Source: an uncultured Bacilli bacterium (GTDB taxonomy: Bacteria; Bacillota_I; Bacilli_A; RF39; UBA660). Taken from it: a stretch of DNA of 49,950 bases. Where the stretch lies: NCBI GenBank assembly GCA_944331835.1, contig CALVIU010000001.1, forward strand, positions 1 to 49,950, given 5' to 3'. The notes beneath the pieces were generated by a model. It had not been told where the DNA came from. It did no database searches and saw nothing but the letters and a program-made list of their open reading frames with translations. How positions within the stretch are numbered: position 1 is the stretch's first letter; every line of letters starts with the position of its first letter. A program made the position numbers and the translations under genes. Shown here piece after piece: positions 39,789 through 43,261 of this stretch.

Positions 39789-40343
39789 TTAACAAATTTG
39801 CACAAAACAATCTTCCAAACCAGTAAAATCGCTTTCTGTAACATTTAATATATGAAAAGGTATTTTTTCTACAATATACTTATTTAAATCCCCAACAATC
39901 CAATCATCAAAAATATCATGAGGATCTTCTACTATAAAATAATTTCCAATCAAAGCATTACAAAATACACAATTATTAGATGTACAATATTTATTTTGTG
40001 TTTTACTAAAATTTCTATTAATTGTCTTATAATTCTTTTTTAAATATTCATCGATAGGTGAAACAGAATCTAAACCTAAATTATCTAATTCCACATATTT
40101 ATCCATATATGGCTTTATTTGCTTGTTTATAAAATAAGTATAAACCATTGTTTTTTTATGACATTTCCAACATTCATGTTCCCATCCATAAATATTAATT
40201 CCATCTTGTTTCAAAATTGCATATAAAATTTTATTTAGTTTTATAGTATTTCTACAACTAGGAAATCTATTACAAGCCCCAAATAATCCATATTGACCAA
40301 GTTTTATAATCATATTTCCCTGACCACATTTTTCGCATTTCAT
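39789..40343 (-). CDS. Zinc-finger protein: N-terminal topoisomerase-type C4 zinc finger plus an uncharacterised Cys-containing C-terminal domain
   Basis: CEKCGQGNMIIKLGQYGLFGACNRFPSCRNT fits the zf-C4_Topoisom pattern (CxxC...G.F..C..yP.C). A second CWKC...CVFC pair follows. SD GGAGGTGATGA upstream. Confidence 0.6.
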   Translation of the reverse strand: MKCEKCGQGNMIIKLGQYGLFGACNRFPSCRNTIKLNKILYAILKQDGINIYGWEHECWKCHKKTMVYTYFINKQIKPYMDKYVELDNLGLDSVSPIDEYLKKNYKTINRNFSKTQNKYCTSNNCVFCNALIGNYFIVEDPHDIFDDWIVGDLNKYIVEKIPFHILNVTESDFTGLEDCFVQIC

Positions 40344-40392: not shown

Positions 40393-40416
40393 TAAAAAGC
40401 GCTAACTAATAGCGCC
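40393..40416 (-). terminator. Rho-independent terminator after the nrdD glycyl-radical fragment
   Basis: The minus strand reads GCGCTA-TTAGT-TAGCGC followed by T5. Confidence 0.8.
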
Positions 40417-40436: not shown

Positions 40437-40628
40437 TTATTTTTCACAAGAGCAAGAAGCAAAAGTATGTTTAACTCTATCATGTTCTTCAGCTCTCTTA
40501 GCATTATTAAATCTATCAACAGTACCAACTAAGTATCCAGTTATTCTTCTGATACTTTCAAAACCTACTCCTTCTCCAGTCATTCTTTCTTTTTTAACTT
40601 CTTCTGTAACAACCTTTTCATTTTTCAT
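40437..40628 (-). CDS. nrdD: Detached C-terminal glycyl-radical domain of the anaerobic ribonucleotide reductase (63 aa)
   Basis: SIRRITGYLVGTVDRFNNAKRAEEHDRVKH matches the class III RNR glycyl-radical signature (RxxGYxG ... R.KH). Its ATG lies 6 nt after, and in frame with, the TAA that ends the 772-aa ORF. Confidence 0.75.
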   Translation of the reverse strand: MKNEKVVTEEVKKERMTGEGVGFESIRRITGYLVGTVDRFNNAKRAEEHDRVKHTFASCSCEK

Positions 40629-40634
40629 AATATA

Positions 40635-42953
40635 TTATTCCTTCCCTTCTAATCTTTTTAATAAATCTACACTAACCGGTTCCCCAGCTCTTCTACCACA
40701 TCTTGGGCAGACATCCTTAATAATTCCAATATAACCACATACTGGATCTCTATCTACTGGATGATTAATTGCTCCATATCCAATATCACTATCATGCATT
40801 ACTCTAACAATACTTTCAAATGCTTCTAAGTTATCTGATGGATCTCCATCAAGTTCAATATAGCTTATATGTCCAGCATTTGTATATTTATGATATACTC
40901 CTTCGATAGCAAGTTTATCTGCTATTGAAATATTATAGTATACTGGTACATGGAATGAATTTGTATAATATGCTCTATCAGTTACTCCTGGTATCTTACC
41001 ATAAATATCTCTATCAATATTTACAAATCTACCAGAAAGACTTTCAGCTGGAGTTGCTAGCAATGTAAAATTCAAATTATATTTTTCTGAATATTCATCA
41101 CATCTTTTTCTCATATGAGAAATAATTTCTTCTCCTAATTTTTGAGCTTCTTTACTTTCTCCATGATGTTTACCAATTAACGCTTTCAAGCATTCCGCAA
41201 GACCAATAAATCCAATTGAAAGGGTTCCATGTTTCAATACCTTCTTAACTTTATCATTTATTTTAAGTTTATCACTATCCATCCAAACACCTTGTCCCAT
41301 TAAAAATGGAAAATTATAAACTCTTTTATTACATTGAACTTCAAATCTTTCTAACAATTGATCTTTTACCAAATCCATTAGTTCATCAAGTTCTTCATAG
41401 AATCCCTTCATATCAGCCTTATCTAAAGCATTAGCTCCAACAATACCATGTTTAATACCTAGTCTTGGCAAATTCATTGAAGTAAATGATAAATTACCTC
41501 TCCCTGGTGTAATTTGTTTATCCGGATCTACTACATTACCAAGAACCCTAGTACGACAACCCATATAACCTACTTCTGTTCGATAATCATCAGGTTTATA
41601 ATATGGTTTATTAAAACTTGAATCTAAGAATGACCAGTTAGGAAATAATCTTTTGGCAGATACTCTTAAACTTAATTTAAATAAATCATAGTTAGGATCT
41701 TCTGAATTATAGTTAACTCCTTCTTTTACTTTAAATATTGATATTGGAAATATTGGAGTTTCACCATGACCAAGTCCTGCTTCTGCTGCTAACATATAAT
41801 TTTTTGTAACCATTCTTCCTTCACTTGATGTATCTGTCCCAAAGTTTATTGAAGAAAATGGTACTTGTGCCCCTGCTCTTGAATGCATTGTATTTAAATT
41901 ATGAACAAAAGCTTCCATTGCTTGATATGTTCTCTTATCAGTTTTTTCTTTAGCTTTATTAATAGACATTTCAAACATTCTTTTTAATTGTTCTGAATTC
42001 TTATAGAACTTTTCAAAATAATCAACTGTAATATCTATAGTATTAATCTTACTAATTTCTCTTTCTAAAACATTTGAATTAATAAAATCGTTTATATCTT
42101 CAAAATCGATATAATCATTAATCATTTGTTTTAACATTTTCTTAAATGTTTTTAAAACCCCTGGAGCTAAATAATAATCAAATGCTGGAATACTTTGACC
42201 ACCATGTTGATCATTTTGATTTGATTGAATAGCTATCGCTGCTAAAGCTGAATAAGACATAATATCATTTGGTTCTCTTAAGTGTCCATGACCTGTTGAA
42301 AAACCATTTTTAAATAACTTATCCAAATCAATTTGCATACAAGTTGTTGTACCCATTGCTAGGAAATCCATATCATGAATATGAATATAACCATCATCAT
42401 GAGCATCAGCAAACTTTTTCTTCATTAAATAAGTCTTCGAAAATTCCTTTGATACATTAGAACCAAATTGTAACATTGTACCCATTGCTGAGTTACCATC
42501 AATATTACCATTTTCTCTTTTTGTATCATCTTCTGCAGCACTCTTTAAAGCTAAACCTTCTAAAGTTTTCAAAAACTTATGACTTCTCTTATCTTCTGTA
42601 AAAGCTGCTCTTGATTGTGCTCTTTTATCTCGATAATCAGAAAAACTTTCAAAAACATCTTCAAATCCATCTTTCTTTAAAGTATCTTCGATAATATCTT
42701 GAATCTCTTCAATTTTAATTCTTTCCTTATCTTGATAATCTTTTTTAATTGTTTCGATAACATCCTGATAAACACGCTGAATTTCATTTGAACCATACTT
42801 AGTTCTTTCTTCGCCATCGTCATCAGTTTCTTTAATGCTATCAAAGCCTTTTTTAATAGCCATAGCTATTTTGGTTCCATTAAAACCAACCTTTGAACCA
42901 TTTCTTTTGACAACTTTAATTGTCTCAAAAAATTCATCTTCTAAATTTGGCAT
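40635..42953 (-). CDS. nrdD: Anaerobic ribonucleoside-triphosphate reductase NrdD, catalytic body (772 aa) ending after the Zn-ribbon
   Basis: N-terminal ATP-cone (VVKRNGSKVGFNGTKIAMAI). Class III RNR blocks follow (GTTTCMQIDL, GNLSFTSMNLPR, YYTNSFHVPV). The C-terminus is PVCGYIGIIKDVCPRCG. Confidence 0.9.
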   Translation of the reverse strand: MPNLEDEFFETIKVVKRNGSKVGFNGTKIAMAIKKGFDSIKETDDDGEERTKYGSNEIQRVYQDVIETIKKDYQDKERIKIEEIQDIIEDTLKKDGFEDVFESFSDYRDKRAQSRAAFTEDKRSHKFLKTLEGLALKSAAEDDTKRENGNIDGNSAMGTMLQFGSNVSKEFSKTYLMKKKFADAHDDGYIHIHDMDFLAMGTTTCMQIDLDKLFKNGFSTGHGHLREPNDIMSYSALAAIAIQSNQNDQHGGQSIPAFDYYLAPGVLKTFKKMLKQMINDYIDFEDINDFINSNVLEREISKINTIDITVDYFEKFYKNSEQLKRMFEMSINKAKEKTDKRTYQAMEAFVHNLNTMHSRAGAQVPFSSINFGTDTSSEGRMVTKNYMLAAEAGLGHGETPIFPISIFKVKEGVNYNSEDPNYDLFKLSLRVSAKRLFPNWSFLDSSFNKPYYKPDDYRTEVGYMGCRTRVLGNVVDPDKQITPGRGNLSFTSMNLPRLGIKHGIVGANALDKADMKGFYEELDELMDLVKDQLLERFEVQCNKRVYNFPFLMGQGVWMDSDKLKINDKVKKVLKHGTLSIGFIGLAECLKALIGKHHGESKEAQKLGEEIISHMRKRCDEYSEKYNLNFTLLATPAESLSGRFVNIDRDIYGKIPGVTDRAYYTNSFHVPVYYNISIADKLAIEGVYHKYTNAGHISYIELDGDPSDNLEAFESIVRVMHDSDIGYGAINHPVDRDPVCGYIGIIKDVCPRCGRRAGEPVSVDLLKRLEGKE

Positions 42954-43261
42954 TTACTACACCCTACCTTCCTTACGATTTCATTATAGTATAGAGATTT
43001 TAAAAAGTCTATCATTTTTTAAAAAAATAATTTTTTCATTTTTTTAAAATTCTCAGTTTTCACCTAATTTATCTAGCAACTCGTTTTGTAAAAAACGCTG
43101 TTTTTTCAGCATATATAAGCCAAAAATCAAACCTTTATCAAAAAAAATACATTTTTTACATTTTTTTACTTTTTCAAATTTTGATTTTTTGCAAAATTTA
43201 CATATCAAGAATTTTACACTTTTTTTCTCATAGTAAATTATTTGAAAAATTTACTAATTTA

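Follow-up and report, generated by a model that had tools for sequence, protein, structure and literature searches.

The window analyzed here, a stretch of 49,950 nucleotides from an uncultured Bacilli bacterium (contig CALVIU010000001.1), encodes on its minus strand the class III ribonucleotide reductase (RNR) NrdD in two pieces. The larger open reading frame (ORF) specifies a protein of 772 amino acids (aa), hereafter the body, whose C-terminal end reads ...CPRCGRRAGEPVSVDLLKRLEGKE and is followed by a TAA stop codon (40635-40637) located after the metal/zinc ribbon. The RxxGY glycyl-radical motif is not on this polypeptide. It lies in a separate ORF of 63 aa in the same frame, whose product, MKNEKVVTEEVKKERMTGEGVGFESIRRITGYLVGTVDRFNNAKRAEEHDRVKHTFASCSCEK, carries an RRITGY glycyl-radical domain (GRD) and contains the stretch SIRRITGYLVGTVDRFNNAKRAEEHDRVKH. 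Six bases (TATATT, 40629-40634) separate the body stop from the ATG of the small ORF (40626-40628), and a Shine-Dalgarno (SD)-like sequence, GGGAAGGAA, directly precedes the body stop (40638-40646); its AGGA core lies some 10 nt upstream of the small-ORF ATG. The original prediction, which was made from the letters of the window, had described a body ending after the ribbon without a radical motif, an in-frame ORF with this motif six nucleotides further on, and a sequence before its ATG that could serve as an SD; the ORFs, the family models and the sequence itself bear out all three.

Searches against family models divide NrdD cleanly between the two ORFs. The body covers positions 1-538 of the 562 in the Pfam model NRDD (PF13597; 630.5 bits, cut-off 26.2) and positions 3-710 of the 746 in the NCBIfam model NF005497 (1018 bits, cut-off 764), and the small ORF covers the remaining ends (PF13597 533-562, NF005497 711-744). 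An alignment to NrdD of Prevotella copri (8P23) gives the same picture, with a match at E = 3.9e-178 over residues 14-754 and a separate GRD match at 799-830. According to these models and this alignment, the two ORFs together make up one complete NrdD, without overlap and with nothing missing. What differs is the distance between ribbon and GRD: in 8P23, only 3 residues separate CPKCGS from the GRD, whereas the last ribbon cysteine and the radical glycine of the window are 54 positions apart in read-through numbering, as the original prediction had estimated. Compared to contiguous relatives and 8P23, this amounts to about 44 extra positions, including the stop.

The residues expected of a catalytic chain are present in the body. 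C466 in the finger-loop motif MGCRTRV, C205 and N487 align with their equivalents in 8P23 and are invariant in an alignment of 25 split and contiguous relatives; from what is known of the phage T4 and Escherichia coli enzymes, we take C466, at the tip of the finger loop, to be the thiyl cysteine, and C205 and N487 to be the second cysteine and the asparagine of the active site. The ribbon has three cysteines in the clade of the window (DPVC...CPRC), in split and contiguous forms alike, and four in P. copri NrdD (CLDC...CPKC). Aligned small proteins fall into three parts: a K/E-rich leader of about 17 residues, a near-invariant core of 37 residues (consensus GEGVGFERIRRITGYLVGTxDRFNNAKRAEEHDRVKH) and a variable tail, in which a CxC or CC pair is often present. 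Such cysteine pairs (CSC, CC, CDC, CxC) are a recurrent though not universal feature of the small proteins, placed at the very C-terminus, and are also seen in many body tails from Bacilli and Clostridia (L032, L033, L035, L038, L049, L052, L055, L060, L067, L082, L087, L097) and, as CNCD or CSC, in some contiguous relatives. They recall, by analogy, the C-terminal redox cysteine pairs of class I/II RNRs. The positions of all features are collected in Table 1.

Table 1. Features of the split nrdD locus, in coordinates of the window.
Feature	Position	Strand	Basis
nrdD body, class III RNR catalytic subunit without glycyl-radical motif	40635..42953	-	PF13597, NF005497, homologue lengths
ATP-cone domain, residues 12-112, allosteric activity regulation	42618..42920	-	PF03477, E = 1.7e-14
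NRDD barrel domain, residues 147-767, with finger loop M464-G-C466-R-T-R-V, C205 and N487	40653..42515	-	Pfam, alignments
Codon of thiyl cysteine C466	41556-41558	-	Alignment with P. copri NrdD 8P23 (MGCRTRV)
C-terminal metal-binding ribbon, C739 ... C749-P-R-C752, three cysteines	40698..40739	-	Alignments; dN/dS 0.02 in the genus
Body tail RAGEPVSVDLLKRLEGKE, residues 755-772, candidate vestige of the first strand of a former GRD and candidate docking element	40638..40691	-	Without counterpart in contiguous NrdD
Coupling junction: SD-like GGGAAGGAA, TAA, TATATT, small-gene ATG	40626..40646	-	Sequence; like layout in 17 congeners
Small-subunit gene, 63-aa stand-alone GRD peptide	40437..40628	-	NrdD model ends; homologue family of 47-70 aa
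GRD core, small-protein residues 18-54	40467-40577	-	Core dN/dS 0.07
Codon of radical Gly31	40536-40538	-	RxxGY motif of the small protein
Small-protein leader, residues 1-17		-	Poorly conserved
Cys-containing tail of the small protein, residues 55-63	40437-40463	-	Sequence
Intrinsic-terminator-like hairpin GCGCT-ATTAGTT-AGCGC + TTTTT, ends the two-gene unit	40394..40415	-	Sequence
Promoter-like TAGACT-17-TATAAT upstream of nrdD	42983..43011	-	Consensus match only

The genome to which the window belongs (1.25 Mb, 91% complete) offers no evident replacement for this enzyme. We found neither a second NrdD nor a class I/II RNR in it (no match to PF02867), and class I/II RNRs were found in none of the 31 genomes of the genus. 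The original prediction had named another intact nrdD or a class I/II RNR as findings that would speak against a two-piece enzyme. The activase NrdG is encoded in the genome (TIGR02491, 157.6 bits, cut-off 126.1), on another contig (G000:C52:2602-3036) and unlinked to nrdD. The split enzyme is thus the one route to deoxyribonucleotides that can be seen in this genome, and the same holds for most congeners with the split, where a fused query matches only the body and the small ORF. This is the strongest indirect argument that the enzyme works. About one third of the congeners are without an NrdD of the window type (G001, G002, G007, G008, G012, G020, G021, G023); most of these have two distant NrdD-like genes side by side, with frames of about 665 and 800 aa and 26-34% identity, and in G001 the radical-domain peptide had no match at E <= 1e-5. 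The genus therefore contains at least two different class III systems.

The RNR complement of the genome also bears on whether the peptide could be a spare part of the GrcA type, which would serve only to restore NrdD molecules after oxygen has cut their built-in GRD. Stand-alone GRD genes of the NrdD type do coexist with full-length NrdD elsewhere: locus L044 encodes a 94-aa GRD protein beside the full-length enzyme and nrdG, a second GRD match in a frame of 92-114 aa occurs in 14 of 400 genomes of the class, and Desulfovibrio falkowii has four GRD mini-genes. These coexisting proteins, however, form a sub-type of their own, marked by an additional domain of about 50 aa at the N-terminus, and the body in the window has no GRD that could be repaired. 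As the genome has no second NrdD either, the peptide must be the primary radical carrier, an obligate subunit, and we consider a mere repair function highly improbable. The likeness to GrcA/YfiD drawn in the original prediction accordingly holds for the supply of a radical domain in trans and fails for the role of a spare, since the peptide is the only radical domain here.

We searched 40 related genomes with the read-through protein and then read the junctions. The same pair of ORFs is present in seventeen further species of the genus, with body identities of 78-94%, and no relative was found in which a sense codon replaces the stop in an otherwise identical sequence, the comparison that the original prediction had proposed. 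In these congeners, the body ends in TAA or TAG, the gap from stop to ATG measures 1, 2, 4, 5, 6, 8, 10, 11, 13, 14 or 15 nt, and the small ORF lies, counting the window, in frame 0 in 3 species, in +1 in 8 and in +2 in 6. Each congener small ORF has its own ATG, always with an SD-like GGAAAGGAA or AGGAGG just upstream. Contiguous NrdD (CPGCNRTEEDGVLFERIRRITGY...) was found in three more distant relatives, of which one belongs to a different family within the order and two to different families within the class. We computed dN/dS by segment across 20 genus-level sequences and obtained 0.02 for the metal ribbon, 0.07 for the GRD core of the small ORF (dS ~1.06) and 0.29 for the body tail, but about 0.9 for the leader and about 1.0 for the C-terminal tail of the small ORF. 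Purifying selection on the GRD core is strong.

These observations leave little room for programmed recoding, by which read-through, or frameshifting in relatives, would yield a fused 838-aa NrdD with a long linker and the small ORF would not be the working form. The two ORFs of the window do share a frame; the junction is predicted to be disordered, so that a fused chain would be sterically possible; and split and contiguous forms are interleaved on the tree of the bodies (see below), which indicates that both states are viable. Yet all three frames are about equally frequent within the genus and the gap length varies freely, so no single recoding mechanism fits. In addition, the small ORF keeps its ATG and upstream SD in every species, other lineages have gaps of 100-175 nt with several stops, Rfam gave no RNA family or structure signal at the junction, and the stop context in the window is TAA-T, the most efficient terminator context in E. 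coli. Recoding thus seems to us very hard to sustain. Even less can be said for the other reading offered by the original prediction, namely that a recent nonsense mutation or an assembly error left nrdD a pseudogene or mis-sequenced and the 63-aa ORF an orphaned 3' end: one frame and a single stop are what this would produce in the window, but the variety of stops, gaps and frames in the 17 congeners and the lengths of the body's 120 best homologues in a collection of 5.8 billion proteins (743-775 aa or shorter fragments, 116 of them 771-775 aa, from many independent contigs, with a 772/773-aa body on hundreds of them) exclude a sequencing error and a strain-specific nonsense mutation, a single base change does not suffice to explain about 44 extra positions, and neither the constraint on the GRD core nor the absence of another RNR from the genome, or of class I/II enzymes from the genus, fits a dead gene, so that its probability is practically nil. 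An intron, intein or homing-endonuclease remnant at the junction was likewise rejected, with a gap of 6 nt, flanking extensions of 16-20 aa and no match in Rfam.

The split is not confined to the genus of the window. The 63-aa protein matches at least 7995 proteins of 35-110 aa, and a HMMER search of 1.84 billion cluster representatives returned 540 at E <= 1e-10, the best 150 of which are nearly all 55-136 aa long. Conservation of the small ORF across hundreds of assemblies made independently shows that the two ORFs are no chance pair. In a scan of one genome per species with the alignment of the small proteins as query, a NrdD body lacking the GRD lay directly upstream in 59 of the 80 best loci, and in 47 of these 59 nrdG also followed directly downstream; 7 of the 80 had a contiguous NrdD, and 14 a stand-alone GRD gene with no nrdD within 4 kb. 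An operon of nrdD body (773-784 aa), small gene (63-68 aa) and nrdG is found in genomes labelled Agathobaculum spp. and in a record bearing a protein labelled Intestinibacillus massiliensis, the sources of the named members of the family. In the window, the slot that nrdG occupies in most relatives, beyond the terminator-like hairpin, holds a gene (39789-40343, minus strand) whose 184-aa product has a C4 zinc ribbon of the topoisomerase type (PF01396, E = 5e-12) and additional cysteine pairs.

Carriers of the split include uncultured gut Bacilli (the clade of the window, under the labels Bacilli or Tenericutes), Butyricicoccus, Neglecta, Acutalibacter, Scatolibacter rhodanostii Marseille-P3890, Bacterium 1XD42-1, Lachnospiraceae, Peptococcaceae, Fibrobacter and Desulfovibrio, and there are isolates among them from the Oscillospirales. 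In the sampled genomes of the window's own family, about 19 have the split form and about 8 the contiguous one. One Fibrobacter genome, too, has no RNR besides the split enzyme. A phage collection yielded just 5 matches to the peptide, all on unannotated fecal contigs. Several records of metagenome-assembled genomes (MAGs), namely L031, L033 and L106 (labelled Muribaculaceae), L090 (labelled Holdemanella biformis) and L048 (labelled Anaerobiospirillum), have nrdD loci that nest within gut Bacilli or Clostridia clades; these are probably mis-binned or mislabelled contigs and no evidence of transfer. Overall, the window belongs to a large group of variant class III RNRs that is apparently undescribed.

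How the split arose is suggested by the two sides of the junction. Our alignment shows CGR-x-E-x-x-GV-x-FERIRRITGY in contiguous close relatives and CGR-x-x-GE-G-V-S-V-E-K-L-K-x-L... in split bodies, whereas the small proteins start ...GEGVGFERIRRITGY. There are therefore two copies of the pattern GEGVx(hydrophobic)E(+)(hydrophobic), one opening the body tail and the other opening the radical domain. Long body tails of the Butyricicoccus type (GEGVPLEKLKKLGLYKNYNSTTIGYHGDQNEEADR...) are colinear with the whole GRD over 40 columns (hhalign P = 1e-4, probability 58%), with tyrosine on tyrosine and EEADR on EEHDR but with the radical glycine lost. The short tail of the window, GEPVSVDLLKRLEGKE, aligns without gaps to GEGVGFERIRRITGYL, with a conserved glycine at the position of the radical glycine (anchored shuffle p = 0.008). 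From these similarities, the body tail looks like the vestige of an older, built-in GRD, which suggests a duplication of the 3' end that codes for the GRD, or the capture of a stand-alone copy beside nrdD, after which the built-in copy decayed and was truncated. The claim of the original prediction that the stop lies within an extra linker is thus correct in that the stretch is extra, but it is no simple insertion: the body tail, which resembles a GRD remnant, makes up its first half, and the poorly conserved small-protein leader its second.

A plausible intermediate on this path is L044, where a full-length NrdD is followed by the 94-aa stand-alone GRD protein, with an identical 32-residue core, and then by nrdG and nrdR. 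In the tree of the bodies, the genus of the window falls into an all-split Bacilli clade (28 rows, SH-aLRT 95) that is sister to a contiguous relative, and a group from Clostridia, Fibrobacter and Desulfovibrio mixes 35 split with 7 contiguous sequences. Since this topology forces at least five changes between the two states, the split state has changed repeatedly. A single origin is not supported; there were re-fusions, repeated splits, or recombination or transfer that blurs the tree. A contiguous gene could readily be restored if the stretch from one GEGV repeat to the other were deleted.

The L044 protein (L044:4159-4443, between the full-length NrdD and nrdG) belongs to a second type of stand-alone NrdD-type GRD protein, 92-122 aa long and with an additional domain of about 50 residues at the N-terminus (MEIKVIGGELSKKEIDAYV...FTVDGEYVDVNYTY), which we also found at L084, L086, L089, L094, L101, L069, L095, L096 and L105. 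The copies in MAGs of Ruminococcus and others are orphans: neither nrdD nor nrdG lies within 4 kb of them. This type is a candidate for a true spare part for class III RNR. Desulfovibrio falkowii 13CB8C (G433, the genome of L099) has a split NrdD (C1:1582311-1584555) and a class II RNR together with three further, orphan GRD mini-genes, near 1520642, 2330929 and 2372179 and with open frames of 57-113 aa, which brings the total to four. In Candidatus Crickella equi (L107:3278-4740), an orphan 53-aa GRD gene lies between genes of 226 and 195 aa. The 195-aa product starts with a rubredoxin-type CxxC...CxxC motif and may be rubrerythrin-like, which would hint at a link to oxidative stress.

Taken together, the comparative evidence makes it very likely that the two ORFs of the window encode a genuine, functional two-subunit class III RNR, in agreement with the two-piece reading of the original prediction, in which the radical domain is supplied in trans. 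We envisage a single transcript that would run from the promoter-like element to the terminator-like hairpin. Ribosomes would stop at the TAA of the body and restart six nucleotides downstream at the SD-preceded ATG, and this translational coupling would yield the two chains in roughly equal amounts. The ATP-cone, the metal ribbon and the ten-stranded barrel that holds the thiyl cysteine C466 would come from the 772-aa chain, and the GRD, with the radical on Gly31, from the 63-aa chain. The peptide would dock non-covalently in the barrel, in the place taken in an ordinary NrdD by its C-terminal GRD. NrdG, acting on the free or the bound peptide, would set the radical on Gly31, from where it would be relayed to C466 for nucleotide reduction. 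The methionine of the finger loop suggests formate as the reductant, as this residue is linked to formate-dependent NrdD in PMC9669993.

Three observations weigh against a working two-subunit enzyme. First, the genome is 91% complete, and a second RNR could sit in the missing part, though the genus is without class I/II enzymes. Second, a class I/II RNR accompanies the split enzyme in Scatolibacter, 1XD42-1 and Desulfovibrio falkowii; because this is true of several cultured carriers, growth in culture is no proof that the split enzyme works. Third, in an AlphaFold2 model of the read-through fusion, computed as a single chain, the barrel is confident, the body tail has a short helix (762-769), and the junction (771-787) and the leader are predicted to be disordered, but the hairpin and helix of the GRD reach a pLDDT of only 50-80 and the glycine loop stays below 50. 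Docking is not established by such values; the model is compatible with it without demonstrating it.

A bolder version of the two-subunit enzyme would treat the peptide as an exchangeable radical cartridge of adaptive value. NrdG would charge the free 7-kDa peptide, docking would be reversible and the body tail would mimic an oxygen-cleaved NrdD, so that after oxygen damage the peptide would be replaced and the 88-kDa enzyme kept. Its origin would lie in duplication of the GRD and decay of the built-in copy, with the 94-98-aa GRD proteins beside full-length NrdD marking a spare-part stage of the path. We regard this extension as speculative and unlikely.

To our knowledge, the radical glycine forms part of the catalytic chain in all glycyl radical enzymes that have been characterised, and the only detached radical domains we know of are the GrcA/YfiD spare parts of pyruvate formate-lyase. 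If the interpretation proposed here is true, a radical domain of 6-7 kDa that is always separate and co-translated would constitute a natural two-component form of an essential enzyme. It would provide a simple system for asking how the activase gains access to the buried glycine loop, how the GRD docks, and whether the radical part is turned over apart from the barrel. There is also a consequence for annotation, as split bodies can pass for truncated NrdD, and the small genes frequently go unnoticed or are labelled 'hypothetical'; neither Pfam nor NCBIfam has a model dedicated to the small GRD genes or the split bodies. A full-text literature search, with subscription-only papers outside its scope, returned no description of a split NrdD.

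Of the known systems, the single-chain class III RNRs (P. copri NrdD, 8P23; phage T4 NrdD, 1H78) share with the window the ATP-cone, the barrel, the MGCRTRV finger loop, the ribbon, the RxxGY motif and NrdG. Here, in contrast, the GRD is on a separate polypeptide, a body tail of 16-18 aa, a stop and a leader of about 20 aa replace the 3-residue link, and nrdG is not adjacent to nrdD in the genome of the window.

The nearest functional analogues are GrcA/YfiD of E. coli and Y06I of phage T4, described in PMC8683613 and PMC13450708 as autonomous glycyl-radical proteins that rescue oxygen-cleaved pyruvate formate-lyase. Like these, the peptide of the window is a small stand-alone protein with a (predicted) disordered N-terminus, whose GRD would have to enter a large barrel subunit in trans and be charged by a radical-SAM activase. 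A further likeness is that the body ends two residues past the position equivalent to the radical glycine, and oxygen-cleaved pyruvate formate-lyase likewise keeps the first half of its GRD. The peptide of the window is, however, homologous to the GRD of NrdD (its only Pfam match is NRDD 533-562) and not to the Gly_radical domain of pyruvate formate-lyase (PF01228). It is also obligate, whereas GrcA coexists with a full-length, GRD-bearing enzyme, the NrdD counterpart of which we did not find in this genome. The 2026 review (PMC13450708) limits the known spare parts to formate lyases and describes their existence for other glycyl radical enzymes as 'yet to be determined'.

Within RNRs, the nearest precedent is the split class II enzyme NrdJa/NrdJb of Pseudomonas aeruginosa, covered in PMC9669993 (citing Crona et al. 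2015). There, as here, the catalytic chain is divided between two adjacent genes, which in the split NrdD are co-oriented and conserved as a pair across species; an extra C-terminal element of the first NrdJ piece is thought to aid association. NrdJa/NrdJb is B12-dependent and has no glycyl radical, whereas the protein of the window belongs to class III, in a genome without a PF02867 match. The detached pieces differ as well: in NrdJa/NrdJb, it is a C-terminal domain with redox and zinc-finger functions, whereas in the window it is the radical-carrying element itself.

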